Under the pieces are notes generated by a model. It saw only the letters and a list, made by a program, of their open reading frames with translations. It made no database searches and was not told where the DNA came from. The translations under genes and the position numbers were made by a program. A stretch of DNA of 64,000 nt from a virus (Duplodnaviria > Heunggongvirae > Uroviricota > Caudoviricetes), in IMG/VR virus record IMGVR_UViG_2916199983_000001; one strand, 5' to 3'. This document shows, piece by piece, positions 10,956-38,588 of the stretch (position 1 is the stretch's first letter; every line of letters begins with the position of its first letter).

Positions 10956-11085
10956 TACACTCTGGTAATCCATTTGCTGCGATAACGAAGACGGCTTTAG
11001 CCTGAGTAGACAGAACGATGTGATTATCAGACGGTGAAAGGCTGATCTGGCGGCATTCGCCCGACCAACACGCCACCAATAAATG

Positions 11086-14500: not shown

Positions 14501-15071
14501 TAATCTGGTCGTAGAATGGGGTAGGGTGCGGATAAACCACGCTGTAGAAGTTATCGCGTCCTCCAGCTGTCACCAGCGTCCCGATAATCTTTGCGAAGTC
14601 CCGGCGCTGGAATACACTGCCAATGTCAGACGTCAGCAGGATGATGTTGCCTTTGGCATATGCGGCCGCCAGCTGGTCAAGCGCCAGACGCGGGACAAAG
14701 TAGAATTGCTCGCGCTTGTTGGCTAAGGTCATCAGTTCGCACACGTCGCGATAACCTTGCTCATTCTTTATCAGTGCCGTGAAGCAGTAGCTGCGATCAC
14801 GTACCAATGATCCCATACATCCCCCTGACTCTTTCGCAAGGCGGGCGCGGTGCTCGTATGTCGGATCGTCGACAACATTCAGCTTAACACCACAAATAAC
14901 CGCCATGTCGTCGCCAGCGGCACGTTGCAGGGGGATCACACTGGCAATGTTCATGCTGTCAGCGGAAATGACAGCGGTGTAGCCAGCGTCTCTCGCGATT
15001 TTCACCGCGTTTTCTGCTTTTAGAGCCGACTCTCCCAGGGAGAAGTCAGTTCTGACCATCAGAGCCTTCAT
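11553..15071 (-). CDS. dnaE: DNA polymerase III alpha subunit (DnaE-type, with N-terminal PHP domain)
   Basis: 1172 aa. The N-terminus has PHP motifs. The core is Pol III alpha-like (GIPVGPGRGSSAGSLVAWCIGITNVDP, FERFINPER, DLDFS). The ATG is preceded by an AAAGGT SD. Confidence 0.9.
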   Translation of the reverse strand: MKALMVRTDFSLGESALKAENAVKIARDAGYTAVISADSMNIASVIPLQRAAGDDMAVICGVKLNVVDDPTYEHRARLAKESGGCMGSLVRDRSYCFTALIKNEQGYRDVCELMTLANKREQFYFVPRLALDQLAAAYAKGNIILLTSDIGSVFQRRDFAKIIGTLVTAGGRDNFYSVVYPHPTPFYDQINVRAMKVASALKIEPVAFYPAYYEAVDDADIKDIAHMVTNNIKIDQPHRLRIPHQRDNAVNGRRHLLEALKAFSVRMDVPVIAAMASTTQDTIIEACTWRWHELPPALPKMADDEPATLMKLAVAGLRKRLTTKEFGYTPPASEHRVYVDRLKYEMDTLTRLGFCGYFLMVRDLMNHSRETGIPVGPGRGSSAGSLVAWCIGITNVDPIRHGLLFERFINPERLDLPDADLDFSQARRHEVIEYLNERYGEDYVAGIPNFTYLGAASALRDTARIYGVDAADMAVSKEFKNLEDDSLSLEELREQLASLDKYATKNPEAFKAACKLQSLMRGFGRHAAGMIVAGVPLVERTPVELRGNARCIAFDKRYCEAMGLIKLDVLGLATLDLLDSAKRYIKESTGDDINLDAIPLDDRKVLDGFAAGYTQGVFQLESGPMRKLLKDLGGGIEPMSFKTVVATTALFRPGPIQSGMLDDYVSVAKGFMAPQSLHPVLDELTAETNGVILYQEQTMNATRLLAGFTMAEADGVRKAIGKKDMEKMKSMGEKFVVQAQGGWIDVEMEDGTTQRIHRAEHFKCEDGALRTVEEALEAGVKLPMAAVRVTGSQPGLSETKAKEIWDAFEKNGAYQFNKSHSVAYSLISYQSMWLKTHYPAEFFAAALTILGEDKHQGLVKDALTYGIRVLPPDVNVSSNRIEIRTLEDGSQVLYAPFSAVKGCSENGCQAIMRAREKVGGKFESLEQFEEAVEKHACNSRVRESLQKVGAFASIEPGSLPATDPERLRDQAELMGNLVIDAVKASRPFEMNPKRSAEVNVLMTRMAAEMGLGDDLIRPSIGIKPKIMVILDNANGNDGRTGYFMENGYDDFKAKLLTAGDLRMGDLYVTGVCKKVKDKEKDYTKDEIGQFTDFMREEINLVRPTYVLTCGSRATSLFNNKSKPSDLVGRKEYLPELDVTVFYGFNPNILYFRPEEGEKLEAILAEVAETISK

Positions 15072-15251: not shown

Positions 15252-16487
15252 TTAACCGAAGATCTTCTGAACCACTTCACGCGCTGCCTGTGCAGACGTG
15301 GATGGAAGTTTATTGATAAACGACTTTTCGATGCCGGCAGAGAAATCACCGCGCATCATTCCGATTTTTGCGGACAGCAGCAGCTCGCGAGGGCCGATTG
15401 GCTGGCTGATCAGATGCTGTTCATAACCTTCACGGACAAGGTTCGCGAATTTCACCATCTTCTCGGCGTATTCGCGGATGACGCCAGCCTCAGCCAGCAT
15501 GTTGACTTCAGCCTTAGTGCTCATGTACTTCACGTTCGAAACAATGCCGAAGCGCGAGAAGTTCGCCGCGTTCTGGATGTTCGTTCCTTGATAGAGACCC
15601 GTTTCGTCGCCAGAGCCGTTAGTGTTGCCAGTGCCAATGAAGGCAAAGCGTTTATGCGGAGTGATACGGCGCCAGTCCGGAGTTGCCTCTTTGATGATCA
15701 GCGGCTCTCCTTCAAGAACTGGCTGGTACACACCCAGAATCTGCGGGAACGCGAAGTCATATTCATCAGCGAGGTACACCCAGCCATTTTTCATCGCCAG
15801 CGCCAGCAAACCCGGCTCGAAGTAGGTGGAGCCATCGCGAGCGAGGATCTGGCCTGTAACGTGTGCTTCTTCCATAGACGCCGTATGCTGGGCGCGGATC
15901 AGTGGTCGATTCAGCAGGGCGCATAGCTGCGTAGGAAGAGAAGATTTACCGGTTCCTGCATGACCCCAGAGATAGCCTGGGATTCCGATTTCCAGCATCA
16001 TGAAGATGTCTTTAATCAGGTCGAAGTCGCCATACACATAGTTCTTCTTCGCTTCCGGTACGAACTCCGGATATGGCGTGTTGACGTTGACTGTCACCTG
16101 TAGTGGTTTTCCGCGTGGCGTTCCCAGCTCTTTGATCGTTACGCCAAGCAGCTCGTGCGCGGCCACCAGTTCAGTCTTGTATTCGACCGTTCCTACGTAG
16201 CCCGGATGTGCGCTAATCTCCGCTACTTTTCCTTCGCCTGAATGCTTTTCGGCAAGCTTCTCATTGAGTTTGGCCAGTGCCGTGCGAGAGATCGTTGGTT
16301 CATCCGGAAACGCAGAGGTGTACATTTTCACCACTTCGTCCACGTCCAGACCCTTCGCGGACTCAGGAATGTTTTCGCAACGGCCCATAGAGATATGGGA
16401 TTTCAGGTAATGAAAGGATTTGCCACACCACTTGCAGACGATGGCTTCCGGCAAATGTTCTTCTTGCTGTAGTGCAGTAGCGGTCAT
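15252..16487 (-). CDS. AAA+ ATPase, CobS/MoxR-like
   Basis: Walker A GHAGTGKSS. There is an N-terminal C2H2-like CKWCGKSFHYLKSH. It is paired with a downstream vWA gene, as in phage cobS/cobT. Confidence 0.65.
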   Translation of the reverse strand: MTATALQQEEHLPEAIVCKWCGKSFHYLKSHISMGRCENIPESAKGLDVDEVVKMYTSAFPDEPTISRTALAKLNEKLAEKHSGEGKVAEISAHPGYVGTVEYKTELVAAHELLGVTIKELGTPRGKPLQVTVNVNTPYPEFVPEAKKNYVYGDFDLIKDIFMMLEIGIPGYLWGHAGTGKSSLPTQLCALLNRPLIRAQHTASMEEAHVTGQILARDGSTYFEPGLLALAMKNGWVYLADEYDFAFPQILGVYQPVLEGEPLIIKEATPDWRRITPHKRFAFIGTGNTNGSGDETGLYQGTNIQNAANFSRFGIVSNVKYMSTKAEVNMLAEAGVIREYAEKMVKFANLVREGYEQHLISQPIGPRELLLSAKIGMMRGDFSAGIEKSFINKLPSTSAQAAREVVQKIFG

Positions 16488-16583: not shown

Positions 16584-18980
16584 TTACCCAAGAATGATAC
16601 GAGATAGCTCAGTGACGACTGACGGCCCTAACTCTTCTACGCTGTTTACCAGTGCGTAATTTTTGTAGTAACGCCGTGGTGCGTCGGTCAGAACGCCGAT
16701 AGCCATCAAATCGATGTCACTCAACGTCTCAATTTCTTTGGTGACGGTTCGCAAATGCTGATGGAACCCATCGCCTGCAGCACATGGCGCCCCGTCGCTC
16801 ATAACCAGCATGATCTTCTTGTCCTCCATTCGCCCTGCAAACAGAGTCGCCAGCTGCGCGACGCTCTCACCATCGACGTTATTGAGCAGGGGGAACGTCT
16901 CACACACGCAGCCCATGCGGGCGCGGATCTCTGGAGAGTTAGCTTTCTCATTCCAGTTTTTGATAATGGGCAGCATTAGCGCCTCGAAACGAGTAAACCC
17001 GCGCTTCGACATGGTTTCATAATCCGGACTACCAAACGTGGTAAAGCCGGTGATGATGTTAGGCACATTGATACGATCCAGAGCATCCGCAATGGTGTAG
17101 GCGCTGGCGAGTGCCAGTTGAATCTTCCTGCCGCCCATTGAGCCGGACAAGTCGATCACCTGCTGGACGCACGCGTTCACGGCTCTGTGGTCTTCTTTCT
17201 TGCGGAATACGCGGTCGTCGTTCATTGCCAGACGATACAGGTTCGCGCCATGTATCCGCCCACGTCTCTGGCCTGGGATAAACTGAACTCGGTTGCGGCT
17301 GGCGATAGCTCGCTCTAGGTCTTTGGCCAGAGTCGAAGAAACGCCTGCTGACAGATGTTTTTCGATTTTCAGTTCAAAGAGTTTTCTACCTTCCGGAACC
17401 ATGCGGTAGCGATCGACCGGTGAGTGCATTGGGATTGCGCCGAACGTCTTTCTGGTGCGCTTTACATGCTCTTCAGCCTCATCAATCAACCCGATAAAGT
17501 CGTATGAACGATCGTATGGGCGATACTCAGAAAGTGAGGTACTCATAAGCTCTTTGCTGATGGTGGCCGACAGCGCGTCTTCGGTCATTTCGCCTGTTCC
17601 GTCTTCCATCTCGTCGAGCGCCTTGAGTGCTTCCTCCAGAGTCATTTCATCCGGAGCGGGAACAAAACCTGACTCACTGTCTTCAGGCGCTTCCGCGGCA
17701 TCTTCATTTTCTTTGCCTTCGCCGTCTGTGTGATCGGCTGCGTCATCTTCCTCTTCTCCTTCTCCTTCTCCTTCTCCTTCTCCTTCTCCTTCTCCTTCGG
17801 ACTCCCCGTGACCAGCATCAGAGTCTTCGCCGTCATCACTATCACCATCGCCAGCGGCGCCAGAGCCATAACCATCGGAGTCATCGGCGTCTTCGCGAAT
17901 GCCATCACCAAGCGTTGGAGAGCCAGTGTCATCACTACTACCTTCGTCATCAGAATCACCTGATTCCATGCCGGCATCATCGGATTCTGGGGTGTCTCCT
18001 GATTCCTCTTCGCCTGCTTCTGTATATTTACTTTCTGTATCACTAATTTCTTTATCTTCTGTAGGTAAGTCCCTATCTACTGATTCAGGCAAATCAGAAT
18101 CCCCAGACTCTTCCTCTTCTGAGGCATCATCTTCTTGTTCTTCCTTGTCGTCGTCTTCGCCTTTGGTACGCTTTGGTGCTGATTCACTATGAGTCGGTTC
18201 ATCACCGGCTTCTGGGGTTTCCTCTGACTCGTCCTCACTCTTCGACGGCTTCCTAGCAGACGATTTCAGCTCTGGTAATTTGCCCTCTGGCTTGTCTTTC
18301 ATATCCTGCATGATTTGGGCGATAGCAGCTGCGACCTTCACACAGTCTTCTGTGTTCGACATATTGCGAACGGCCACGTCGATCCCATGTTCTTTGAGCA
18401 AGGCTACAGGCTTATCGATGAGGTGCCAGTGTTCTTCCATAAAGTCGATGAAAGGGCTTTGGCCATCCCAGGCGCGGACGACCGGGCAAAGGAAGAATTT
18501 CAGGAACAATTCACGCTGGTTGCCGTGGCAGATTGAAACCGCCTCTGACACTTTGCCCTTGAAGTATTTGTCGATCACCAGGTTCTGTGTGGCCAGCAAA
18601 TTGCGACGAGTTCCGTTGAATACCTGTCCCATTCTGCGTTCAATAAAAACGTCTTCCAGCGCGTTCCAAAGACCGGTAGACGGAGCCTTTCCTTTCTCGC
18701 GCATCTTCATTGCGACTTTCGGATCAGTAAAGAGGATATGGGCTACCTCATGGTCGAGAAAACCACGCACTGCGTTCATGAGGGTTGGCGATGCGTCGTC
18801 AGGTATAGATGGGATATTTACCAGCACTGGTTCGCCGCGCCGGTTGTAGCGGACATATGCTTCATTGCCTCGCTCTGCAACAGGTATCTGTTTACCTGAA
18901 AGCATCGCTACAACTCGTTTTACGCAGTCGCGGAAGTCCTGTACCTCTTTCAGCACAGATCTGGTCATGGCTTTGGACAT
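16584..18980 (-). CDS. CobT-like vWA-domain protein with a long acidic Gly/Glu/Asp repeat region
   Basis: The central region is (GE)n/DDxD-rich. The C-terminus has a vWA/MIDAS motif (DLSGSMGG). I place the start at ATG 18980, with AGGAAA 8 nt upstream. The track ORF begins at 19034. Confidence 0.65.
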   Translation of the reverse strand: MSKAMTRSVLKEVQDFRDCVKRVVAMLSGKQIPVAERGNEAYVRYNRRGEPVLVNIPSIPDDASPTLMNAVRGFLDHEVAHILFTDPKVAMKMREKGKAPSTGLWNALEDVFIERRMGQVFNGTRRNLLATQNLVIDKYFKGKVSEAVSICHGNQRELFLKFFLCPVVRAWDGQSPFIDFMEEHWHLIDKPVALLKEHGIDVAVRNMSNTEDCVKVAAAIAQIMQDMKDKPEGKLPELKSSARKPSKSEDESEETPEAGDEPTHSESAPKRTKGEDDDKEEQEDDASEEEESGDSDLPESVDRDLPTEDKEISDTESKYTEAGEEESGDTPESDDAGMESGDSDDEGSSDDTGSPTLGDGIREDADDSDGYGSGAAGDGDSDDGEDSDAGHGESEGEGEGEGEGEGEGEEEDDAADHTDGEGKENEDAAEAPEDSESGFVPAPDEMTLEEALKALDEMEDGTGEMTEDALSATISKELMSTSLSEYRPYDRSYDFIGLIDEAEEHVKRTRKTFGAIPMHSPVDRYRMVPEGRKLFELKIEKHLSAGVSSTLAKDLERAIASRNRVQFIPGQRRGRIHGANLYRLAMNDDRVFRKKEDHRAVNACVQQVIDLSGSMGGRKIQLALASAYTIADALDRINVPNIITGFTTFGSPDYETMSKRGFTRFEALMLPIIKNWNEKANSPEIRARMGCVCETFPLLNNVDGESVAQLATLFAGRMEDKKIMLVMSDGAPCAAGDGFHQHLRTVTKEIETLSDIDLMAIGVLTDAPRRYYKNYALVNSVEELGPSVVTELSRIILG

Positions 18981-18998
18981 GAGAATTTCCTTGTTATT

Positions 18999-19014
18999 AA
19001 AACAATTTGTTTTC
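18999..19014 (-). promoter_or_regulatory. AAACAA-T-TTGTTT palindromic leader motif (cobT-like gene copy)
   Basis: On the coding strand it reads GAAAACAAATTGTTTTAATAACAAGGAAATTCTCATG. Confidence 0.45.
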
Positions 19015-19089
19015 TGATGTGCGTAATTTATCACTGTACGAACAGGCGACTAAGCTGTTCGTACAGGCTTCTATCGGCAGGAATGTGTT

Positions 19090-19302
19090 TTAAATGGTTC
19101 TAACGGCAAGAGAGCCGCAGCCAGTATTGATGAGAGTGAAATGTTTATTTTTTAGCTCAAAAGTGAAAACCGTCGTATCAACCATCTCCACGGGAAGCTC
19201 TTCGGATTCCAATTCCGTCAGGATCGTTGCCACGCCATCCAGTCCAATCGCATACGCGTGTCCAACCTCAAGGGCGGTCAATTTAGAAGTTATATTTTTC
19301 AT
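19090..19302 (-). CDS. hypothetical protein
   Basis: 70-codon ORF only. Confidence 0.3.
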   Translation of the reverse strand: MKNITSKLTALEVGHAYAIGLDGVATILTELESEELPVEMVDTTVFTFELKNKHFTLINTGCGSLAVRTI

Positions 19303-19566
19303 TTCATATCATCCAACTGAACACATTTGAAAGTTTGTCAATACTACTACCTATTGTATCAATATGGAATGAGTCTATATCAGATACGTATTACTTTTGC
19401 CTGTAAGCTAATAGTGACAAATTGCCTAAAAAACATAGTATAATAGCGGTGTCCCAGGGGATTAGTACCTATCGAAATTAAATAGATAAGTCTTTACAAC
19501 CCTGGCCTTTGCTGTAATATCAGTAAGCACTTACCAGAGATAAACAAAACACGCAAGGTTTACTAC

Positions 19567-19953
19567 ATGGCTACCAACGAAACAGAGATCAAACAAGGTC
19601 GCTACGCAGCTTATATTGACTCGTTAATCACAATCTCGCCTAAAAGTCAGGCCACCATTGCCAAAGAGGTTGGGTACAAGAACGCCAACAATCTCTCCCT
19701 CATTAAAAGCGGCAAAATCCCGCTGCCGGTAGATAAAGTTCGAGCTTTAGCTAAAGCGCTAGATGCAGACCCGGTTCGACTGATGCTGATGGTTCTGGAA
19801 GAACGCCACCCTGAGTTGCTCGAATTTTTTCGCGAAGAGGGAACTGCGCCTCTCTCCGCTGATGAAAAACTTGTTCTAGAAGCGTTCCGTAACCGTTTTA
19901 ACGGTCAGCAGGGCGCATCAGAAAAGGTGGTCGAGGCCATCAAGTCACTGTGA
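19567..19953 (+). CDS. HTH (XRE-like) DNA-binding protein
   Basis: SQATIAKEVGYKNANNLSLIKSGK fits a helix-turn-helix. It follows an AT-rich region with a promoter-like TTG..TATAAT (about 19420..19445). Confidence 0.55.
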   Translation: MATNETEIKQGRYAAYIDSLITISPKSQATIAKEVGYKNANNLSLIKSGKIPLPVDKVRALAKALDADPVRLMLMVLEERHPELLEFFREEGTAPLSADEKLVLEAFRNRFNGQQGASEKVVEAIKSL

Positions 19954-21051
19954 GAAATTTACACGAATAAGCTCGGTGGCTAGACGATCTCCCTTGAATT
20001 TGTGGTCTATCTCGTCTAAGTCTGTTTGATTAACGATAGATGCGATGTACGCTGAGAAGTTGTTCAAGGCGTCTCGCATCTCATCCATATAATCGTGGCG
20101 ATCATAGACGCGATCTATCCCTTCAAGACTGTGGTTCATAATCTTACGAGCCACCTCCTGGTTAATCCCTAGAGCAGGGAAATAACTACGCGCTGTACGT
20201 CTCAGATCGCGTGGGGTGAATGACTCAACCTCCATCAACTCAGGTCGTTCCAGTATCCTTCTCAGTGCCTGGGCAATGGCCACCTTAGACATTGGCGTAT
20301 CCACGCCCTTCTTCTTATTCGAAGGAACGAGCCACTGGCTGCCTTTCCCGTACTCAAACAACTCTTCCACGCATTTGCGCATTAATGGGCTTAACGGCAG
20401 CGCGTGCTGTCTGGCCGATTTGTTACGCGTACCTTGATTCCATACATCACGTTGAAGGTTGAACTCATCCTTTCTGGCTCGGAGCACTTCATCGGGGCGT
20501 CTGGCAGCGACAAGACAGAGCCTGGCCGCCCACTTTGTGCCTTCGCACACATTGAAGTAATCCCAGACGTTCCAGAATACCCAGACCTCGGCGTCGGTCA
20601 GCTTACGTTCGCGCGGTACTGGCTTTGCGCCACCGGCAACTCTGTTGAGCGACATATCATTCAACGGTGATGTATCAATCAGCCCCTGAAAGGCGCACCA
20701 GCTCAGGAACTGTTTCATCAGGGAGAACACACGTCTGCCCTGGACGATCTTGCCTTCCAGTATCAGCGGGTTCACCAGCTGGTTAACCAAGACCCTACTT
20801 ATATCACTTACCTTTACTTCAGAGATATGCGGCATTACATGTATCAAAACACAATGAACAGCTATTTCAGGTCGACGCCTCGTTATCAGTAAAGATAAGC
20901 GAGTGAATAACATGAAGGCGGAAGAAAATGACATGTCTCCGTCGAATTTGGCGGTCGACATTGCCGACAAACCGGAAGCGCGTTCGAGGTACTCGATGGC
21001 TTCCCGAGAGGTGTTTTCTGCTGCGCGTGCTTTATCAAAGGTGTTTTTCAT
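19945..21051 (-). CDS. tyrosine recombinase (integrase / Cre/Xer-like)
   Basis: The C-terminal catalytic signature is present (RDLRRTARSYF ... HSLEGIDRVYDRHDY, i.e. R..H-x-x-R..Y). The exact start is uncertain. Confidence 0.7.
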   Translation of the reverse strand: MKNTFDKARAAENTSREAIEYLERASGLSAMSTAKFDGDMSFSSAFMLFTRLSLLITRRRPEIAVHCVLIHVMPHISEVKVSDISRVLVNQLVNPLILEGKIVQGRRVFSLMKQFLSWCAFQGLIDTSPLNDMSLNRVAGGAKPVPRERKLTDAEVWVFWNVWDYFNVCEGTKWAARLCLVAARRPDEVLRARKDEFNLQRDVWNQGTRNKSARQHALPLSPLMRKCVEELFEYGKGSQWLVPSNKKKGVDTPMSKVAIAQALRRILERPELMEVESFTPRDLRRTARSYFPALGINQEVARKIMNHSLEGIDRVYDRHDYMDEMRDALNNFSAYIASIVNQTDLDEIDHKFKGDRLATELIRVNFSQ

Positions 21052-21148
21052 CGTCCACTCACTGAGTGAAGCCCTTTTACTGTATGTATAAACAGTATAT
21101 TAGGCATAAGTTTCTGTATGATCAACCATAAAATAGCCTGTTTTGTAC

Positions 21149-21181
21149 AATGATTCCATACTTACTAGGTATGGAATCATT
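21149..21181. other. lox-like site: 13-bp perfect inverted repeats around a 7-bp spacer
   Basis: AATGATTCCATAC ttactag GTATGGAATCATT. It lies about 100 bp upstream of the tyrosine recombinase start. Confidence 0.5.
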
Positions 21182-21224
21182 AAAGGGCGGAAATTTAAAT
21201 TCTGAGGTTTTATTAGCGTGATTG

Positions 21225-21635
21225 TCACGGATTAGTGAGCGCTTGAAATGCAGCGGCGTATGCAGCGATATCGGCCATAATTTTTGGATCTTTCGCATAC
21301 TGATGTGCGTTGTTAGGGAAGATTGCCAATAGGCTATACACATCTTGGAAATGTGCATGTTGACTGTAAACGAGTGCGCGGTCGCTTGTGCAATTGAATC
21401 TGTTGCGGCTGCTGGTTCGTTCTTGCTTCGTGAACAAGAGATGAACGTGATAAACGCGGGAGGACACGATAGCACCCGGAGCCGTATACGGGCCATCTTT
21501 GCCGAATACGGCTGGGCACATGCCTTGTTTAAGCGACGTGAAATCGTCGAGTAACGTGATCTTTAAGTCAGGCTTTATATCGAAGGTCGGCTGTAAAAAT
21601 TGGGCGTAACTATCACTGTTCCATGTGACCTTCAT
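21225..21635 (-). CDS. YafO-family toxin-like protein
   Basis: It aligns with E. coli YafO (GMCPAVFGKDGPYTA vs GVLPDIFGRDALYDD; VYHVHLLF vs VAHIHLAN; LVYSQHAHFQDVYSLLAIFPNNAHQYAKDPKIMADIAAYAAAF vs LVYCQGAFDEQAWLLIAILKPEPHKLARDNNQMHKIGKMAEAF). Confidence 0.5.
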   Translation of the reverse strand: MKVTWNSDSYAQFLQPTFDIKPDLKITLLDDFTSLKQGMCPAVFGKDGPYTAPGAIVSSRVYHVHLLFTKQERTSSRNRFNCTSDRALVYSQHAHFQDVYSLLAIFPNNAHQYAKDPKIMADIAAYAAAFQALTNP

Positions 21636-21644
21636 CGTTCAACC

Positions 21645-22253
21645 TCAATGGAATGAGAAGTTGGCGAAGACGTCCTCATCAATGAGGCCAGTCTGCGATT
21701 CGATGACGTCTACGTCGTTAAAACACTGATTTAAAATCAATAGCAGATCAGAGATAGCCAAACGATACTCAGTTACAGAATCGCTCAGGCGCTTCAAGTA
21801 TGGATGAGGTTGCTCAGAGTCACGAATCAACTTGTTAACGAATCCCTCCAAACCACGAATGGTCAGGTCAACGTTCTTCAGTTCTTCGTAACGGCTTTCA
21901 CCGAAGCTGCTGCGAATCTTTTCCGCTTTCCATCCAGAGATGGCATTAGCCAGGCGAACGTGTTTCGCCGTCAATTCTGCGAGCTTGCTTTCGATCTCTG
22001 CCAGCTGTGCGGCATCGCCGTTCTCCTGAACAGGGATACCTGCGGTTCTCACATAGGTTTGTTCTTTGAATCCTGCGAATTTTGCAGAGTGCTTCACCGT
22101 GCCACGGAAGCGTCGATATCCAAGCGGCTCAATAAAGACACGCCCAGATTTAGCTTTAGGCTTTGCATTTGAAAAGCGCGAAGCGTTAGAGGTCACAGTA
22201 GCAAGGGCATTGCTAATGACACTCATATCTTCCAGGCAATTTTCTAAACGCAT
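21645..22253 (-). CDS. hypothetical protein (candidate partner or antitoxin of the YafO-like gene)
   Basis: 202-codon ORF ending 10 nt upstream of the YafO-like start. I recognise no family. Confidence 0.4.
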   Translation of the reverse strand: MRLENCLEDMSVISNALATVTSNASRFSNAKPKAKSGRVFIEPLGYRRFRGTVKHSAKFAGFKEQTYVRTAGIPVQENGDAAQLAEIESKLAELTAKHVRLANAISGWKAEKIRSSFGESRYEELKNVDLTIRGLEGFVNKLIRDSEQPHPYLKRLSDSVTEYRLAISDLLLILNQCFNDVDVIESQTGLIDEDVFANFSFH

Positions 22254-22348
22254 AAAACCTCTTAACTACTCAATGGCTCGTAACTAAGTGTACGCTGTGT
22301 TGATGAAAGCGACAAATAATAAACGGCCCCAAAAGGAGCCGTATTGTA

Positions 22349-22597
22349 TTACAGAGTGCTCGCAAAAGCAGCAAATTCTGTATAGCCGCCGATAGGTTCA
22401 CCATTTACGAACACCTGCGGTATGGTTTCCACCGGCTTGCCAACCAGGTCGCTTAACTTCTCTTTGTCGATCCCGGCAGACACAATATCGATGTATTCGT
22501 AATCACCAAAGTCGTGGCCGTGCAGCTGCTTCGCCAGCTCGACCGCACGTTTGCAGTATGAGCAATTATCCCGTCCGTAGATAACGACCTTCATCAC
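22349..22597 (-). CDS. glutaredoxin (NrdH/GrxA-like)
   Basis: CSYC active site at residues 12-15 of MMKVVIYGRDNCSYCKRAVELAK. Confidence 0.7.
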   Translation of the reverse strand: MMKVVIYGRDNCSYCKRAVELAKQLHGHDFGDYEYIDIVSAGIDKEKLSDLVGKPVETIPQVFVNGEPIGGYTEFAAFASTL

Positions 22598-22953
22598 TTC
22601 ACCTCGTGCAGCTGCTGCTTGAGAAGATAGCCTTCCAGGGGCCAGATTTTGGCAATCGCGTTCTGGCGTGCAATTTTACGTCCGATCTCCGGATCAAAGT
22701 TCTCCGGGCTGGCGCACGCAGACTCGCCGGTTACGGTGTAGCCGTTCTCCAGCACAAGAACGCAGAAGGTCAGCAGTTCGAGCGGGGCCGGTTCAGGCTC
22801 TTCCTGCTTCAGCCACAACGGTGAGCTGCGATATCCGTCCGCGCCGGTAAAGTAAAACTCGCCTGAGATAACAGCTTCAATGCGTTCCGGGGTAACACGC
22901 GCGGCCGTTTTGCCTTTGGCCACAATCTCTTTTTCGATATCCATATCGGTCAT
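22594..22953 (-). CDS. hypothetical protein
   Basis: 119-codon ORF coupled to grx. Confidence 0.45.
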   Translation of the reverse strand: MTDMDIEKEIVAKGKTAARVTPERIEAVISGEFYFTGADGYRSSPLWLKQEEPEPAPLELLTFCVLVLENGYTVTGESACASPENFDPEIGRKIARQNAIAKIWPLEGYLLKQQLHEVK

Positions 22954-22968
22954 TTTGGTTTCCTTACG

Positions 22969-23172
22969 TTAAAACTGAGCGATCCGGGCACGAAGAATCA
23001 GGTCATACGCCTTCATCGTGTCCAGCTGCTTAATGAGGATGATGCGGTCGACATACAGCAGGCGAGCAAACTCGTCGCCGGCAATGTATGCCTCCAGTTC
23101 TTTTATGCGGCTACACAGTTCTTCGTGTTCATCCATGACACGTTTCTGGTGTGGCAGGTACTCTTTGGTCAT
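22969..23172 (-). CDS. hypothetical protein
   Basis: 67-codon ORF. Confidence 0.35.
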   Translation of the reverse strand: MTKEYLPHQKRVMDEHEELCSRIKELEAYIAGDEFARLLYVDRIILIKQLDTMKAYDLILRARIAQF

Positions 23173-23181
23173 TGGCTTTCC

Positions 23182-23955
23182 TTACTGATAGGCTTCCAGT
23201 GCGACTTTGCATAGCTCAGAACGCACGCAGTCTTCGGTCGCAAACTCAATAAGGCCAACATGGGAGGAAGGTTTAAAACGCTCCAGTGCATCTTCCAGAC
23301 CAGACTTAACATTGCCTGGCAGGTCGCATTGCGTCACATCTCCGTTCACAATGACGGTTACGTTCTCGCCCATACGGGTCAGGAACATTTTCATTTGTGA
23401 CGCTGTAACGTTTTGCGCCTCATCCAGAATGACTACAGCGTTCTCGAATGTGCGCCCACGCATGTAAGCGAAGGGGGCAATTTCTACTTTGGCCACCTCT
23501 GGCTTTAAGCAATATTCAAGGAACGAGCCACCCAAACGCTTCTGTAGCACGTCATAGACGGGCCGGAAGAACGGAGCGAACTTCTCGCTCATGTCGCCCG
23601 GAAGGAAGCCCAGATCTTCTTCTGCTTGCAATACCGGACGCGTCACGATGATCTTCCCGACTTCCTTATCCAGCAGACGCTGCGCTGCGACGGCAGCTGC
23701 CAGGTACGTTTTGCCGCAGCCAGCTTCGCCTGTGGCGAACGTTAGCGTTTTGGTATCGAGGGAGATGAGATAGTGGGCCTGGGCCTCGTTTCGCGCTTCG
23801 AGAGGAGAGTTGTCGCGCTTCGGTTTCGGAGGCAGAGCAGGGGCGGCAGCCAGTTCGTCAACAATGATTGTGTCAATTTCGTAGCCGTGGATGCGTGGTT
23901 TTGACTTCAGAGCCTGACGAGCTGCGCGACGCGTCTGTTTACGTTTGTTTCCCAT
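23182..23955 (-). CDS. phoH: PhoH-family ATPase
   Basis: Walker A GEAGCGKTYLA and the PhoH core are present. I place the start at ATG 23955, with AAAGGA 8 nt upstream. The track ORF starts at a TTG at 23970. Confidence 0.85.
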   Translation of the reverse strand: MGNKRKQTRRAARQALKSKPRIHGYEIDTIIVDELAAAPALPPKPKRDNSPLEARNEAQAHYLISLDTKTLTFATGEAGCGKTYLAAAVAAQRLLDKEVGKIIVTRPVLQAEEDLGFLPGDMSEKFAPFFRPVYDVLQKRLGGSFLEYCLKPEVAKVEIAPFAYMRGRTFENAVVILDEAQNVTASQMKMFLTRMGENVTVIVNGDVTQCDLPGNVKSGLEDALERFKPSSHVGLIEFATEDCVRSELCKVALEAYQ

Positions 23956-24195
23956 ATTGAGTCCTTTCAAGTGAGTAACTGAAAGTACTATACATTAGAA
24001 ACACAAAAAAGATAAGTGTGTACCTACCTATCAGAATGACTTCAACAAAGTTTTTTACGGTATTAAAGGGGGAAAATAAAGTTTTTTTAGTTATTATAGG
24101 ATAGGCGCTTTGCTTCAATCATGACTACTATGAAGCGGTCATGTGATACAGTTTAAGCTTGCCAGTGCGTCTACTAAAGGAATACTGAAATTATT

Positions 24196-25401
24196 ATGAC
24201 GATACCAGCCAAAATAGATACCACTAATTTACTCACTATACTTGGAGTGATCGCTGCCGTATGGGCAATAATTACTCCTACCAGCAGACTGCGATTTCGT
24301 TTTTGTATGACTCGGTGGGACCTACTAATCATTGGGCTGATTTTTATACTAGCTAATTATTTGGTTTTTGCACCTGCATTAAGACAAGTTGGACTGTATT
24401 ACAGTTTCGGACCGTGGATATGGGGATTGGATAGTTCGAGTGCAGTATATCTATTGTTTCTCTTGGCTGCCTCATATCTTTTCATTCGGCTAAAATCGCC
24501 AACATTAAATCGAGGTAAAATAACACTATTTCTTGAGCTAATTGAGAGTTTACATCTTACCAAAAAATATGATGAGTTAGTATTGTTAGTTGAGCCTCAG
24601 TTAGACGAAATAATATCCCTTGCTAATGGAAAACCGAACCTTATTGTTCAATGGATTGATAAGCTATATGGCGGCTCCGATCGAAATGCGTTATTGAATG
24701 GAGAAGAACCCAAAGAACGAAATGTCTTGGTGAAAGGTCTATATTCCCTACTAAGTCCTTTGCGTAAAAAGCTATCATCAAATTATGAAGCCAGTGATAA
24801 AGCCCGAGAGGTTTTGCTGAATATACTAACTTCTCCTGATCTTACAAGGCATCTTTCACTTGCATATCCTCATTTTTGTTTGAGGCTTATTGGTGCTGAT
24901 GAGGTCGTTCGTTCTGATTTCATTGATAGATTTATTAATTCGCTGCTTGACTCACCTGGTAGTCGTCTTTATGTAGAACTTAAAAATAACCAAAATACAT
25001 GTACTGGAGGACGTCTTGCGATACCTGAAACCAACCGCTTGCTTCACTTTTTCTTTGCCGACTCAGTGTATGCAAGTAAAAGTGGCATATATAGAGCTAT
25101 AGGTGAATCTGTTTGCTGGCGTTTAGATGAAGACAGTAAGTTATCAGAAATACTAAACAAGCCCCTTGGCTCTTACCGTGAGCAAAGTAGATTTAGTTGT
25201 CCTATTAATTCTGGAATAACAATGTTCGAAATTATGGTGCATCAAGGTATTCATCAAAGATTGCAAGATCATCTTTGGCTGCATTATTTCAAACACTTTG
25301 CTGAAAAAATATTATATCAAATGAAAGTTCAGAGTATTGACTCAATCGCAGAACATCAAACACCATATCACTATCTTCTATGTCGCCTATTCGGTATTGC
25401 T
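24196..25401 (+). pseudogene. N-terminal 402 codons of an IS-disrupted, AT-rich gene for a 3-TM membrane-anchored protein
   Basis: Three N-terminal TM helices are followed by an unrecognised cytoplasmic domain. The apparent stop TGA at 25402..25404 is the first 3 nt of the IS terminus TGACCTGCC. Confidence 0.6.
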
Positions 25402-25534
25402 TGACCTGCCCCCACGATTAGATACAACACTCAGTTAGTAACGTCGGAATCTTCATTCTCAGAATGGTAATCCCCCCGAAAAGCCGGTGTGTTCATAAGT
25501 AGAATTTTCTCGTAATCTGAACCGGGAGATTTCT

Positions 25535-25801
25535 ATGAAAAAATCACGTTTTACCGACAGCCAGATCATGGCCATCCTCAAGCAAGCAGAAGCAGGAACG
25601 CCGGTGGCTGAATTGTGCCGCGAGCATGGCATGAGTAGCGCCAGTTTCTATAAGTGGCGCTCACGCTTTGGCGGGATGGATGCCTCCATGATGGCCCGTC
25701 TGAAAGAGCTGGAAGATGAAAACCGCCGCCTTAAAAAGATGTATGCCGAAGAACGACTAAAAGCCGAGATCATTCAGGAGGCTATGGCAAAAAAGTGGTG
25801 A
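25535..25801 (+). CDS. IS3-family transposase OrfA (HTH + leucine zipper)
   Basis: [32 protein letters not shown].... Confidence 0.85.
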
Positions 25802-26622
25802 AGCCATCGCATCGAAAGCAGATGGCACAGGACGCAGTCAGGAGTCGAAGCGTCAGCATACATTTTGCCTGCCAGTTGTTTGCTGTCAGCGAAAGTTGCT
25901 ATCGCTATCAGCCTCAGTTGAATGAAGAAAATGTCATTATTGCCGACTGGTTGCTCCGCATCACTGGCAATCAGCGCAACTGGGGATTTGGCCTGTGCTT
26001 TTTGTATCTGCGTAACGTAAAAGGCTTTAAGTTCAACCACAAAAGGGTGTACCGAATTTACTGCGAGTTATCGCTGAACATGCGAATAAAGCCGAAAAAA
26101 CGACTGAAACGGGATAAGCCCGAACCGCTGACGGTACCTAAAAACAGTAATGAATGCTGGTCGATGGACTTCATGCACGATCAATTATCAGATGGTCGCT
26201 CAGTCCGTCTGCTGAATATTATCGATGATTTTAACCGTGAGGCACTGGCAATAGAGGTCGATTTTTCTCTGCCGGCAAACCGAGTTGTGCGAACGCTGGA
26301 ACAGCTCATTGAATGGAAAGGTAAACCCATAGCAATACGATGTGATAATGGACCAGAATATACCAGTAACACGTTGATATCATGGGCTAATGACAGGGGC
26401 ATCCAGATTAACTTTATTCAGCCCGGCAATCCGCAGCAAAATGCCTATATTGAGCGTTACAACCGTACGGTACGCTATGATTGGCTGGGGCAACACCTGT
26501 TTACATCACTGGATGAATTGCAGAACTATGCCACGCAGTGGCAATGGTTTTATAATCATGAACGACCAAATATGGCGTTGAATGGTTTCACGCCGATGCA
26601 ACATATTCAACGCATGGCCTGA
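25795..26622 (+). CDS. IS3-family transposase OrfB (DDE), expressed by -1 frameshift
   Basis: DDE region ...WSMDFMHD...IRCDNGPEY...[12 protein letters not shown].... Confidence 0.85.
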
Positions 26623-27463
26623 TTCTACTTATCACCTCCGTCAAAAATGGGGGTATTACCGAATGACCCTTTCTCCAGCCCGCTGCAAATTCAGACGGTG
26701 TCTGATAATTCAGCGTGGAGTGCGGGCGGCATTCGTTATAATCCTGCCGCCAGTCATTAATAATTTTCCTGGCATGAACGATATCGCTGAACCAGTGCTC
26801 ATTCAAACATTCATCGCGAAATCGTCCGTTAAAGCTCTCAATAAATCCGTTCTGCGTTGGCTTGCCCGGCTGGATTAAGCGCAACTCAACACCATGCTCA
26901 AAGGCCCATTGATCCAGTGCACGGCAAGTGAACTCCGGCCCCTGGTCAGTTCTTATCGTCGCCGGATAGCCTCGAAACAGTGCAATGCTGTCCAGAATAC
27001 GCGTGACCTGAACGCCTGAAATCCCAAAGGCAACAGTGACCGTCAGGCATTCCTTTGTGAAATCATCGACGCAGGTAAGACACTTGATCCTGCGACCGGT
27101 GGAAAGTGCGTCCATGACGAAATCCATCGACCAGGTCAGATTGGGCGCCGCCGGACGGAGCAGCGGCAGACGTTCTGTTGCCAGCCCTTTACGACGTCTT
27201 CTGCGTTTTACGCCCAGGCCACTGAGGTGATAAAGCCGGTACACGCGCTTATGATTAACATGAAGCCCTTCACGGCGCAGCAACTGCCAAATACGACGGT
27301 AGCCAAAACGCCTGCGCTCCAGTGCCAGCTCAGTGATGCGCCCTGATAAATGCGCATCAGCAGCCGGACGGTGAGCCTCATAGCGGCAGGTCGACAGGGA
27401 TAAACCTGTAAGCCTGCAGGCACGACGTTGCGACAGACCGGTCGCATCACACATCAACATCAC
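26588..27463 (-). CDS. IS407-group transposase OrfB (DDE)
   Basis: ...WSMDFVMD...IRTDQGPEF...[23 protein letters not shown]...RPHSTL.... Confidence 0.85.
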
Positions 27464-27821
27464 GGCTTCCCGCTTCTGGTCTGTCGTCAGTACTTTCGCC
27501 CAAGAGCCACCTGAAGCGCCTCTTTATCCAGCATGGCTTCGGCAAGCAGCTTCTTGAGTCTGGTGTTCTCTTCCTCAAGCGACTTCAGGCGCTTAACTTC
27601 AGGCACCTCCATACCGCCATACTTCTTACGCCAGGTGTAAAACGTGGCATCGGAAATGGCATGCTTGCGGCAGAGTTCACGGGCGGGTACCCCAGCTTCG
27701 GCTTCGCGGAGAATACTGATGATCTGTTCGTCGGAAAAACGCTTCTTCATGGGGATGTCCTCATGTGGCTTATGAAGACATTACTAACATCGGGGTGTAC
27801 TAATCAACGGGGAGCAGGTCA
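26590..27821 (-). mobile_element. IS3-family (IS407-group) insertion sequence, copy B, inverted relative to copy A
   Basis: The outer terminus read in IS orientation is TGACCTGCTCCCCGTTGATTAGTACA, ending at 27821. Its orfB 3' end overlaps the 3' end of copy A orfB. Confidence 0.8.
27487..27750 (-). CDS. IS407-group transposase OrfA
   Basis: [30 protein letters not shown]...[15 protein letters not shown].... Confidence 0.85.
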
Positions 27822-28209
27822 TGCTATAGATTGGGCAGAACAAAGTTCATATATAAAAACAGTTAATAATTCTAAGGAGGATAGTAGGTATATCCCTAAG
27901 GAAGCGACGAAAGTATTAGGCTCTATGTTAGAGCATGTTATTCCTAGCCTGAAATTGAAGGGGTACTCAAAAGTATCCATATTACAGATGGTTGTCACCT
28001 GTTACACCAGGCTCGAAGAAAGGCAGATTAATGATATAGGTGAGGCATTATTGATACACACAACAACGGGGGAATTTAACTCTACAAGTTTAACATATCG
28101 TAGGAAGCTTCTATCGATATTCAAACGAATGGACCCTTACTTACAGGGAAATGCAAAAAAATTCAGAGAAAAGATAGAATTGGCTATTCAAATTAAACTT
28201 AACAGGTAA
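27822..28209 (+). pseudogene. C-terminal about 128 codons of the IS-disrupted AT-rich gene
   Basis: Once the IS pair and one TGCT copy are removed, the reading frame continues from the 24196 ORF (..FGIA|IDWAEQSSYIKTV...). The track ORF start at 27661 lies inside the IS, antisense to orfA. Confidence 0.5.
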
Positions 28210-28324
28210 TGGTTTAATTAAGCAGAGGAGCAAGGTCCTCGATTATGACATTGGTGTTATTAAATGAAATTGACTAACTTTGTCTTTTTTTTCAAGTAAT
28301 ATTGTTCTTTTTTGCTAATCTTAC

Positions 28325-28347
28325 AAAAGGGGCCGAAGCCCCTTTAA
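28325..28347. terminator. bidirectional rho-independent terminator
   Basis: AAAAGGGGCcgaaGCCCCTTTAAT. Confidence 0.5.
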
Positions 28348-28420
28348 TTATTTGCGCTGAAAAAAGTGTTGCTACGATGCTAAGAAGCAATGGTTAAGAA
28401 CGTCTGCCGTGTCTATCACA

Positions 28421-28496
28421 GCGCTGAACGGTCTGGCGACATTTTGCGGAGTCTTTCCGTTCGGACGGTGGTGGCGAACTCCAAACCGTTCAGCGC
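28421..28496. other. long hairpin: 12-bp perfect inverted repeat GCGCTGAACGGT/ACCGTTCAGCGC closing a structured 52-nt loop
   Basis: The inverted repeat is visible directly. Nested sub-stems (GGAGT..ACTCC, CCGT..ACGG) lie inside the loop. It sits just 3' of tRNA-Asn on the minus strand. Confidence 0.5.
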
Positions 28497-28501
28497 TATG
28501 T

Positions 28502-28576
28502 TGGCGATGGTGGGTGGACTCGAACCACCGACCAGTTGATTAACAGTCAACCGCTCTACCACTGAGCTACACCATC
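28502..28576 (-). tRNA. tRNA-Asn (anticodon GTT), CCA encoded
   Basis: Hand fold: acceptor GATGGTG/CACCATC, D-arm GCTC-AGTGGTA-GAGC, anticodon stem GTTGA/TCAAC with loop CTGTTAA, T-arm GGTGG-TTCGAGT-CCACC, discriminator G, then CCA. Confidence 0.85.
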
Positions 28577-29323
28577 ATTTTCGCGGCGGTACTTGTTCAT
28601 GGACAACCAGGCAACCAAGAACTTTCCCGCAACTTGCACTTTACGTTAGTGCCAGACGAGGCTTATGGCTCGCTCACATAGAGCGAAGATCTGGAATCCT
28701 TCTCGGCGGTTGACGGCCGCCAGACTCTTCGATCTTATTGGATGTATGGAATCATCCATGTTGTGGAACCAGGGGCTACATAGGCAACAATGATTTCACC
28801 AGAGGGTTAAAGAATCCTGCTTTCACAACGTTGAGGCCACTGAACCGATTTATGTTCGACCCAACATATTGATCAGTCACTACAGCTCTGTGGAATCACC
28901 TGTATGATTAAAAGAAAAACAGTGACCTCAACGTTGTGCGCTGGCTAACCAAGCCAGCCGGGTTACGTCGCCGCTTTTAACCCAAGATTAAACGACATAA
29001 GTAATGGAAATGACGTAACAGGATGGACGGTCAGCTGGCTGAAACCGGGATGATGGAATGGAATGAGGAAACCAACCGCCCATCCTGTTACTTCATCGAA
29101 TAGGGCATGGGTGGTGCAACATGCCCTATCCTGCGTTCTACAATCACACTCGCTCAGTGTGTCCCATTTCGGTGACGAGGCTGGAAACTGACCTCGCTGG
29201 TGTTTGGCTTCTTAGGCTACTGCCAGGTACGTATCTTCGTTTGCAGTTATATTTAACGTTCAAACAGTCGCGTCTCAACGAAAACAAATGAATCTTATAC
29301 ATAACAGATAAGTAAGTAAATAC

Positions 29324-29557: not shown

Positions 29558-29595
29558 GGGGTTTGAGGGCCAATGGAACGAAAACGTACGCTAAG
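29558..29595. repeat. Tn3-family 38-bp terminal inverted repeat (tnpA end)
   Basis: It contains the tnpA stop codon, as in Tn3. Confidence 0.9.
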
Positions 29596-32599: not shown

Positions 32600-33748
<1,149 letters not shown>

Positions 33749-33752
33749 TAAT

Positions 33753-33774
33753 GAAGGGGGCAAATGCCCCCTTC
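33753..33774. terminator. bidirectional terminator shared by the convergent arsA fragment and arsC
   Basis: GAAGGGGGCaaatGCCCCCTTC. Confidence 0.6.
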
Positions 33775-38439: not shown

Positions 38440-38588
38440 TTCCGCACTCCCGTCTCGTGAACAACCCGATACAGACGCTTACCGATGCGAAGCGTTTTGG
38501 TTTTCAGTTCCTGCCTGACCAGGTCGCGACAGATACTGAAGCCGAGGGCCACGCCCCCAGCAAAAGATAATAGGATGTATGGAATCAT
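38436..38588 (-). CDS. small membrane protein (50 aa)
   Basis: MIPYILLSFAGGVALGFSIC.... It is coupled to both neighbours. Confidence 0.3.
   Translation of the reverse strand: MIPYILLSFAGGVALGFSICRDLVRQELKTKTLRIGKRLYRVVHETGVRK

Follow-up and report, generated by a model that had tools for sequence, protein, structure and literature searches.

A 33-bp palindrome lying upstream of a tyrosine recombinase gene (int) in an SSU5-like Citrobacter phage-plasmid is probably the cognate core site of that recombinase, with the pair predicted to act as a Cre/lox-like system of plasmid dimer resolution. In the window, meaning the whole 64-kb stretch of DNA that was analysed, the left arm AATGATTCCATAC occupies 21149..21161 on the plus strand, and the right arm GTATGGAATCATT, which is the same 13-mer read on the minus strand, occupies 21169..21181. 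Each is a putative binding site for one recombinase monomer. The 7-bp asymmetric spacer TTACTAG (21162..21168, strandless) is the putative strand-exchange (overlap) region. Both the sequence itself and a repeat search confirmed the two perfect 13-bp inverted arms of the original prediction, which are exact reverse complements; the search also offered an alternative reading with 16-nt arms of 94% complementarity separated by 1 nt. The description of the site as exactly the loxP/FRT architecture did not hold, as its spacer has 7 bp. The FRT spacer has 8 bp. The loxP spacer likewise has 8 bp (PMC10250229).

The palindrome is the longest perfect short-spacer inverted repeat of the window, where about 0.01 would be expected by chance (64000 x 10 x 4^-13, for arms of at least 13 bp and spacers of 3-12 bp). 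Since two 12-bp inverted repeats are also present in the window, length is not decisive by itself, and the comparative data have to decide. Only a single full site was found in the whole 119.7-kb plasmid, and one in a Klebsiella relative too. A protelomerase (tel) site was considered and rejected, given the asymmetric 7-bp centre, the odd length and the circular replicon. From the inner edge of the palindrome to the int ATG (21051) there are 97 bp.

The int gene (19945..21051, minus strand) encodes a 368-aa protein annotated as a site-specific integrase (WP_048665987.1). It matches Pfam PF00589 (Phage_integrase) with E 7e-10 and 39.3 bits, over a cut-off of 27.1. PF22022 (Phage_int_M, the central domain) matches below the cut-off of that family, the match to NCBIfam PRK09692 is partial, and the best match among named PHROG families is integrase (phrog_1). 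An AlphaFold model (pLDDT 81.6) gave Tn1549 Int and lambda Int as best Foldseek matches (E ~3e-6), with probability 1.0 for these two, XerH and IntI; XerH is a distant structural match. Cre was ranked 36th (E ~1e-2) and was not recovered by a PDB sequence search at E<=1. The phi3T SroF repressor, which has a recombinase-like fold, is also in the Foldseek list. As modelled, the protein thus has a lambda-Int/P4-type fold and not a Cre-type fold. The characterized members of the lambda/P4-type branch are mostly integrases, a point against a resolution role. No arm-binding Pfam family was matched, and residues 1-60 are predicted to be helical in the AlphaFold model.

Catalytic residues, assigned by motif position in the family alignment rather than by structural superposition, are invariant in 25 homologs: R184/R185, K211, R281-D-L-R284, H307 and Y316. 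The R..HxxR..Y signature originally reported needs correction, as the arginines and Y316 are present while an invariant Arg (R281) sits where the His of HxxR is normally found, giving RxxR. This replacement of the canonical His also counts against the proposed role. The invariance of the catalytic residues, including the Tyr nucleophile, over 44-100% identity implies selection for catalysis.

The link between gene and palindrome was assessed in an unbiased set of 62 int loci, collected by protein similarity alone and spanning 44-99% identity. The palindrome was not missing from any relative with the same recombinase: in all 62, the gene is preceded, about 45-200 bp upstream, by an inverted repeat whose spacer is 7 bp. 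The arms are perfect over at least 11 bp in 56 loci and imperfect in five, and one locus has the same arms with a symmetric end change. The inner 10 bp of the arm are identical, with a 7-bp spacer, in 114 IMG/VR contigs, and in these viral contigs int (56-99.7% aa identity) adjoins the site wherever the gene falls within the available locus DNA. At three loci int seemed to be missing, but a group II intron has inserted there between the gene and its promoter. The yafO neighbor is often absent beside the site in viral contigs, and the gene on the far side is not conserved. Megablast homology to the E. coli clade stops exactly at 21181.

In a clade at 44-50% identity, TGACTCCAGAC-N7-GTCTGGAGTCA replaces TGATTCCATAC-N7-GTATGGAATCA. 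Both arms are altered symmetrically at the same two positions, following the recombinase clade. Palindromes of the hybrid arm types TGACTCCATAC and TGATTCCAGAC were not found in the viral contigs. Some sites have unequal arms (TGACGCCAGAC versus TGACTCCATAC) with no compensating change, which argues against a hairpin. The spacer is 7 bp long in all of the ~170 sites examined. Its sequence varies with the clade and also between close relatives, and can run in either direction relative to int, while the outer positions are mostly kept as approximately TTnnTAG in the spacers listed across relatives. Such variability would be tolerable for a self-contained simple site and not for an attP that has to match a chromosomal attB. 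Linkage, conservation and clade co-variation, all read from sequence, thus support the view that the palindrome is the target of the recombinase.

All copies of the module were found on plasmids or phage-plasmids. Among 5,426 complete E. coli genomes there were 33 int matches and, with the 33-bp sequence of the E. coli clade as query, 252 site matches, all plasmid-borne with one site per record; no chromosomal copy of gene or site was detected in these genomes. In PLSDB, int is present on 929 plasmids at 932 places, as a single copy in all but a few. These include plasmids of Yersinia pestis, ~107-kb plasmids of Salmonella enterica and many of Klebsiella, E. coli and Enterobacter, and some carry resistance genes. 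The Yersinia pestis and Salmonella plasmids are presumably of the pMT1 and pHCM2 kind, names that are ours and not those of the records. The module is common to SSU5-like phage-plasmids and to non-phage plasmids of Pantoea, Rahnella and Erwinia; on Pantoea megaplasmids it stands alone among metabolic genes. Neither the module nor the putative repressor next to it is present in phage SSU5, which keeps all virion and replication genes, so that, judged by this comparison, the module appears dispensable for the phage cycle. The segment missing from SSU5 corresponds to window positions 19069-28458 (9.4 kb). No direct repeat of at least 8 bp was found at the deletion junctions and the tRNA 3' end is not duplicated. 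An island integrated at the plasmid tRNA-Asn was therefore rejected, and the difference looks like an ordinary deletion.

From the linkage, conservation, symmetric co-variation, plasmid-only spread, single site per replicon and intact catalytic residues, we infer binding and cleavage of the palindrome and a role in resolution. One monomer would bind each 13-bp arm, as expected from the mechanism of the family, and two sites would synapse as a tetramer with strands exchanged across the 7-bp spacer. Given one site per replicon and a plasmid-only life, the natural substrate would be a directly repeated pair of sites in a plasmid dimer. The recombinase is predicted to turn such dimers back into monomers, as Cre does at loxP, and may also circularize incoming phage DNA. 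Gene and site would form an old, self-contained module in which site specificity co-evolved with the enzyme. Resolution fits better than integration because the copies are confined to plasmids, each replicon has a single site and even close relatives do not share the same spacer. When palindromes near Cre-type recombinase genes were tested as predicted targets, about half of the candidates were confirmed experimentally (PMC10250229). A dif-like position at the terminus is unsupported. The site is not opposite the replication genes: it lies ~20 kb from repA in a circle of 110-120 kb, and in a Pantoea stewartii plasmid of 334 kb int and repB are ~65 kb apart, a distance of ~18-20% of the circle. 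Nearly all genes lie on the same strand, a bias that dominates the cumulative GC skew and makes it monotonic and uninformative.

The SSU5-like clade also has single arm copies away from the palindrome, as the 15-mer ATGATTCCATACATC, the exact core arm plus ATC. They occur only within ~7 kb of the palindrome, in three coding contexts, and all of them point towards it, a polarity that rests on three or four independent positions only. In this plasmid, ATGATcCCATACATC (14807..14821, plus strand), with one mismatch, lies antisense inside dnaE. The exact 11-mer is found at the homologous position in 36 of 40 relatives, whereas DnaE proteins that are more distant do not conserve the residues encoded at this point (CMESL). 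TGATTCCATACATC (20435..20448, plus strand) is antisense inside int, over codons D-V-W-N-Q and ~0.72 kb from the core. It is exact in only 55/111 relatives, and the W-N-Q codons partly dictate its sequence, since W and Q do not vary in the family; it is the weakest of the four half-sites. The remaining two are ATGATTCCATACATC itself on the minus strand: one (28741..28755) is ~165 bp upstream of tRNA-Asn (28502-28576), and the other (38574..38588) forms the first five codons (MIPYI) of a 50-aa ORF (38436-38588). An ars/Tn3-family transposon (29558-38363) separates them. No half-sites were found in the distant clade within 9 kb on either side of the site; a near-match inside the int genes of that clade is due to conserved Trp, Gln and Gly codons.

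The isolated copies in the SSU5-like clade are most simply explained as extra binding sites for the same recombinase. Scars of cassette insertion into the spacer were rejected as their origin, as the bases adjoining the arm (ATC...) match no spacer and the motif does not vary even where it lies within coding sequence. A simple Cre/lox model does not predict isolated half-sites, a point against it. More speculatively, and at rather long odds, the ATGATTCCATACATC copies might be functional recombinase-binding sites that make up, with the core, a convergent polar array of ~12 kb. It might serve as a trap for replication forks, give a translocase its direction or unload SMC/MukBEF; alternatively, it might keep the core within an intramolecular four-arm complex for as long as no dimer is present. 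If so, it would be a plasmid-scale counterpart of the Ter/KOPS/XDS sites around dif, built from the half-site of the recombinase itself.

The palindrome is bordered on either side by about 25 bp of weakly conserved sequence. Between it and int, a tentative int promoter can be read from the sequence at 21097..21125 on the minus strand, with -35 TTGATC (21125-21120), a 17-nt spacer and -10 TAATAT (21102-21097). It matches 8/12 consensus positions, under the threshold of the promoter scan, and the GATCAA block is retained in most SSU5-like clades. Comparison of relatives showed a semi-conserved flank beyond the distal arm (21182..21207, strandless) with a T-rich stretch and AAATTCTGA (21197-21205), the latter at a fixed distance from the arm. 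Both clades have an AAnTCTGA-like motif ~19-27 bp outside the arm, past which the DNA of relatives is unrelated. In this region the promoter scan gave GTGACA-18-CAGAAT on the minus strand. The flank could represent an accessory element, or else a -10-like element oriented towards the site. Given such semi-conserved flanks, accessory factors may be required at the site, or it may have a second function in regulation; together with the isolated half-sites, the flanks suggest a site perhaps less simple than loxP. A spacer that can face either way relative to the flanks would suit a simple site, while the semi-conservation of the flanks hints the opposite way.

These flanking signals bear on whether the palindrome is mainly a regulatory operator for int or neighboring genes, with the half-sites in the same regulon and the recombinase, or some other protein, as the regulator. 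Recombinase-fold repressors do act as DNA-binding regulators in SPbeta-like phages, and the match to phi3T SroF, the dispersed single arm copies, the location of the site ~23 bp upstream of the plausible int -35 and a far-side -10-like element, which at its fixed distance could drive transcription through the site, would all suit such an operator. Nevertheless, the catalytic residues including the Tyr are kept over the full range of identities, the Pantoea megaplasmids carry the module alone among metabolic genes and without half-sites, and the fixed 7-bp spacer is typical of a crossover region. We regard a mainly regulatory role as unlikely, although regulation could coexist with recombination. 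Still less can be said for a transcript hairpin, for example one that ends or directs processing of a transcript between yafO and int, or for a chance palindrome, which we consider highly improbable. The palindrome lies between two same-strand genes and its predicted RNA fold is stable (-19.2 kcal/mol, z = -5.3). However, the palindrome remains beside int even where the upstream gene is a different one, mismatched arms are uncompensated in some sites, and the same 11-15-mer is conserved as single copies unable to pair. An intrinsic terminator was rejected, as the core arms form an AT-rich stem that no T-run adjoins (no U-run in the transcript) and a terminator scan of 20900-21700 was empty. 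Rfam gave nothing at the site, with matches in the window only to cspA, an IS1222 frameshift element and tRNA.

The original prediction had also allowed for an attP core. On this reading, the recombinase would integrate the element into the chromosome or other replicons. The lambda/P4 integrase-type character of the protein (PF22022 central domain, partial PRK09692), a 7-bp overlap as in lambda-type cores, the variable-cargo hotspot just past the distal arm and the tRNA-Asn gene at the far end of that variable segment are what one might expect of such an element. Against this, the search of host genomes for an attB with the 33-bp site returned plasmid copies only: none of the 252 site-bearing E. 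coli genomes has a chromosomal site or gene. In addition, the site beside int is intact in ~170 loci and never hybrid, its spacer is not constant in close relatives, the 9.4-kb segment absent from SSU5 has neither direct repeats at its borders nor a duplicated tRNA 3' end, and the protein has a predicted helical N-terminus with no arm-binding domain by Pfam. An attP core is accordingly disfavored and seems very improbable. Taken together, the 62/62 loci, the co-variation, the restriction to plasmids and the absence of the module from SSU5 make integration, a terminator and a telomere site unlikely.

The recombinase gene is counted among the persistent genes of the SSU5 phage-plasmid supergroup (PMC7969092). 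The searchable literature (SSU5, pMT1, pHCM2, integrase, resolution, arm sequences) yielded no account of its target. The system is thus previously undescribed there, and it is fairly ordinary in kind. If the target is confirmed, it would explain how low-copy SSU5-type elements stay monomeric and would offer a handle for curing or destabilizing these plasmids. In addition, two natural recombinase/target pairs that have a 7-bp spacer, do not belong to the Cre family and are probably orthogonal would become available. The conserved single arm copies pose a question of their own, and one that is directly testable.

Over its core-binding and catalytic domains, the present recombinase is structurally closest to lambda Int, Tn1549 Int and P4-type integrases, and it has PF22022 in common with them. 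The lambda overlap region is likewise 7 bp. The present system differs from them in its perfect 13-bp symmetric arms, in that no arm-binding domain or arm-type repeats were detected, and in being always on a plasmid, with no attB or integrated copy found. Resolution by one tyrosine recombinase encoded next to or near its dimer-resolution site is seen in XerS/difSL, XerH/difH, F ResD/rfsF and Salmonella Rsd/crs. The Xer/dif site has 28 bp (11-6-11) and lies at the replication terminus, compared with 13-7-13 here at a position not opposite the rep genes. In E. coli, Ter and KOPS sites converge on dif, and the convergent polarity of Ter/Tus and KOPS resembles that of the half-sites. Copies of a recombinase-arm-like motif near the crossover site are likewise found in the Tn4430 TnpI accessory repeats and the B. 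subtilis XDS sites, the latter described as dif-like sequences where XerD unloads SMC (PMC11840125, citing Karaboja 2021). Unlike XDS, Ter and KOPS, the copies described here are predicted sites only, on a kilobase scale in a 110-kb plasmid, consist of the exact arm plus ATC, and lie inside coding sequences.

The closest parallels in layout are P1 Cre/loxP, Dre/rox, Vika/vox, Nigri/nox and Panto/pox, each with one recombinase gene and one nearby palindrome with 13-bp arms and a short asymmetric spacer. They too are borne on plasmids or plasmid-prophages, each replicon having just one site that lacks a partner in the chromosome, and dimer resolution is the expected job there as here. Panto is 41% identical to Cre and pox resembles rox (PMC4957104); it is a different system, though also from Pantoea. 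The present recombinase is not of the Cre type, has RxxR in place of HxxR and a 7-bp instead of an 8-bp spacer, and its site has semi-conserved flanks and extra single arm copies. Target searches for Cre-type enzymes likewise predict a palindrome close to the gene, and because an 8-bp spacer and homology to Cre were both preconditions in published screens (PMC4957104, PMC10250229), the site described here would escape them.

The palindrome contains the two perfect 13-bp inverted arms of the original prediction. As read from the sequence, the left arm AATGATTCCATAC (21149-21161) and its exact reverse complement (21169-21181) flank the spacer TTACTAG. No other perfect inverted repeat with a short spacer in the 64-kb window is as long, and the full site occurs only once in the entire plasmid. 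One neighbor is a yafO-family toxin gene (21225-21635, minus strand), whose stop faces the site. On the other side, the gene for a 368-aa tyrosine recombinase (int; 19945-21051, minus strand) starts 97 bp away, in agreement with the predicted position about 100 bp upstream of the gene. The window is positions 1-64000 of plasmid pRHBSTW-00570_3 of Citrobacter sp. RHBSTW-00570 (NZ_CP056401.1; 119,726 bp, circular, non-mobilizable, IncFIB), and a 2.2-kb query spanning the palindrome matched that record with 100% identity and unchanged coordinates. The tailed-phage gene set is complete, making the plasmid an SSU5-like phage-plasmid.

Searching IMG/VR with the inner 10 bp of both arms and any 7-bp spacer gave exact matches in 114 contigs. 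At every one of these loci whose sequence reaches int, the gene adjoins the site, about 45-130 bp off, and the linked recombinases are 56-99.7% identical to the window enzyme; yafO on the other side is often absent. Three loci seemingly without int have a group II intron directly upstream of it. Such an intron (Rfam RF02005, 182.7 bits) separates the putative promoter of int from its start codon in the IMG/VR loci L066 (13247-13472), L084 and L085. Since these contigs had been picked via the site itself, an unbiased set of 62 loci, one genome per species, was gathered using an alignment of 25 homologues. In all 62, two inverted arms separated by 7 bp lie upstream of the recombinase gene, beginning 80-216 bp from it, and the pairing of palindrome and recombinase extends to every protein-selected relative. 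The arms are perfect over at least 11 bp in 56 loci; one locus departs from these arms only by a symmetric change of their inner end, and another five carry one or two mismatches.

Relatives at 44-50% identity (Pantoea, Rahnella, Erwinia, Ewingella, Xenorhabdus, Photorhabdus, Morganella and Hafnia) form a distant clade, in which sites of the form TGACTCCAGAC-N7-GTCTGGAGTCA replace TGATTCCATAC-N7-GTATGGAATCA. Two arm positions are altered, in both arms jointly, with the spacing unchanged; the arm consensus is TGA[CT][TG]CCA[GT]AC. In imperfect sites the arms are unequal (TGACGCCAGAC and TGACTCCATAC in one instance) and uncompensated, which would be tolerable for protein-recognized half-sites and not for a functional hairpin. 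The spacer is 7 bp in every site examined and differs by clade (TTACTAG in the window; TTAATAG, ATAGTAG, CTACCAA, CTTACAA, TATATAA and others elsewhere), with TTAATAG the most frequent in each of the two major clades. The spacer was found in either orientation relative to int, even between enzymes at least 97% identical (loci L050 and L121 versus L014), so its orientation relative to the flanks seems free. This fits a simple lox-like site.

The recombinase matched Phage_integrase in Pfam, with the central domain Phage_int_M below cut-off, and gave only a partial NCBIfam match, to a P4-type integrase domain model. No sequence match to solved structures was found. As modeled by AlphaFold (pLDDT 81.6), it is structurally nearest to Tn1549 Int and lambda Int (E ~3e-6 to 6e-6), followed by XerH, XerA and IntI; Cre is a much weaker match (E 1e-2), and the enzyme falls outside the Cre family. 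Family-invariant residues in the 25-homologue alignment include R184/R185, K211, R281-D-L-R284, H307 and Y316, so the catalytic set, as assigned by motif position, is intact save for an arginine in place of the usual first histidine. The signature differs from the R..HxxR..Y originally proposed in having R281 where its His would stand. The enzyme is predicted to work like a simple recombinase.

The alternative that the palindrome is an attP core used for integration is disfavored. A search for the 33-bp site of the E. coli clade as a host attB across 5,426 complete genomes of E. coli returned 252 matches, with 33 megablast matches for the gene region; all were on plasmids, and no chromosomal copy of either was found. 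Each E. coli record has one site, listed twice since it matches on either strand. The seemingly free spacer orientation does not fit a site needing a directional match to accessory arms or a fixed chromosomal attB, and no repeats were seen flanking the int-bearing segment beside tRNA-Asn. In PLSDB, 929 plasmids encode the recombinase family in 932 places, almost always once per plasmid; 896 of them are non-mobilizable. On a 508-kb Pantoea vagans plasmid the gene stands alone amid metabolic genes.

A purely regulatory operator fits poorly with the invariance of the catalytic residues; a dual role, regulatory as well as recombinational, is plausible. A terminator was excluded by a terminator scan and the comparative data, and a telomere-resolution site by the asymmetric center. 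A dif-like placement at the replication terminus was unsupported.

Conservation is weak in the ~25 bp on either side of the palindrome. An AAnTCTGA-like motif lies 19-27 bp outside the arm, away from int, in both clades, and beyond it the DNA of the relatives is unrelated. Megablast homology of the window to the E. coli clade ends precisely at 21181. The site therefore divides a conserved block on the int side (int, XRE regulator, CobT-like protein, AAA ATPase and DnaE) from variable cargo on the far side (yafO, glutaredoxin, phoH and IS elements), a position compatible with exchange at the site without proving it. Phage SSU5 (L193, JQ965645) lacks window 19069-28458, which contains int, the palindrome and an XRE gene annotated 'putative repressor' in phage Cyrano, and retains the virion and replication genes. 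This module is thus not needed for lytic growth and is associated with plasmid life. The 9.4-kb segment absent from SSU5 also holds a small hypothetical gene, yafO, grxA, a gp49-family gene, phoH and two IS3 copies; in SSU5 it is replaced by thirty unrelated bases (L193 42643-42672). One deletion endpoint falls inside a hairpin with 20-nt arms directly past tRNA-Asn, the other beside a 12-bp inverted repeat (19034-19066).

The arm 13-mer is in excess in the window, with seven matches (at most two mismatches) against 1.4 expected. Four extra copies share the longer motif (A)TGATTCCATACATC: at 14808 (plus strand, antisense in dnaE, C-M-E-S-L), 20435 (plus, antisense in int, D-V-W-N-Q), 28741 (minus, non-coding, upstream of tRNA-Asn) and 38574 (minus, sense, codons 1-5, M-I-P-Y-I, of a 50-aa ORF). 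These are the only occurrences in the whole plasmid; they lie on either side of the palindrome and are all oriented toward it. After subtraction of the ars transposon and IS elements they are at about -6.3, -0.7, +5.3 and +6.3 kb, as in NZ_OW849211.1. A Klebsiella plasmid has the identical layout, with no further exact copy in 109.7 kb. Among ~100 relatives, int-side copies are all on the plus strand and far-side copies all on the minus strand; since the positions are inherited, this polarity amounts to three or four independent observations. The dnaE copy is present as an exact 11-mer at the homologous position in 36 of 40 loci, and the corresponding segment is unconserved in more distant DnaE proteins. 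In the window's own copy (14808-14821) a T-to-C change (TGATCCCATACATC) converts DnaE CMESL to CMGSL, whereas the motif is unaltered in close relatives. Inside int, the copy matches exactly at just 55 of 111 loci and is mostly forced by the W-N-Q codons. No half-sites were found within 9 kb in the distant clade or in same-arm Chimaeribacter plasmids. SSU5 keeps the half-sites though it lacks int, a retention made weakly informative by 95-98% identity.

The small ORF opening with the half-site motif (38436-38588, minus; MIPYI...) and another small ORF at 26406-26582 (minus) of relative L116 have products of similar design, in which one hydrophobic helix precedes a basic tail bearing an R(L/I)YR(V/I)V motif. 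The former shares one base with the upstream stop codon (TAATG), which suggests translational coupling. Unannotated L116 DNA at 24800-25530 (~window 28370-29100), around tRNA-Asn and into the interval between the far-side half-sites, has several inverted repeats (arms of 19-22 nt, loops of 42-77 nt) that may be structured RNAs. Between the same half-sites, a Tn3-family transposon (29558-38363; tnpA, serine recombinase and arsRDABC) interrupts a small gene of the backbone that carries the annotation 'C-type natriuretic protein'; the close relative NZ_OW849211.1 lacks it. Two IS3-family elements interrupt the variable region (24000-28300), one with an IS1222-type frameshift element (27403-27520), and another copy of the transposase lies at record position 101183-102270. 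Elsewhere, a full-length cspA thermoregulator (10564-10998, plus; Rfam RF01766, 224.9 bits) spans a plasmid-borne cspG. The AAA ATPase gene (15252-16487) pairs with a gene annotated 'porphyrin biosynthesis protein' (16584-19034, minus), whose product has a long acidic low-complexity insert including (EG)n repeats and which we read as CobT/vWA-like. In the Klebsiella relative L182 (NZ_CP075258.1; 2806-5148 and 10490-13551), a LAGLIDADG homing-endonuclease gene lies where the window's plasmid has a recombinase gene at 4824-5900, and an HNH endonuclease gene directly adjoins dnaE; the annotated dnaE CDS of this relative is 2.4 kb versus 3.5 kb. These endonuclease genes point to intein or homing-endonuclease activity in replication genes.

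No description of the palindrome or arm motif was found in the literature searched. Published target-prediction screens demanded Cre homology and an 8-bp spacer (PMC4957104, PMC10250229), so that a 7-bp-spacer, non-Cre site would be missed. The core site and its recombinase belong to an already known kind of system. We take the half-sites to be putative extra binding sites for the recombinase, and TnpI accessory repeats are a possible parallel. Ter/KOPS show polarity around dif, which could likewise parallel the convergence of the half-sites on the palindrome. A further possible parallel is offered by the XerD-binding XDS sites (PMC11840125). The half-site array might exceed the known kind of system to which the core site belongs.
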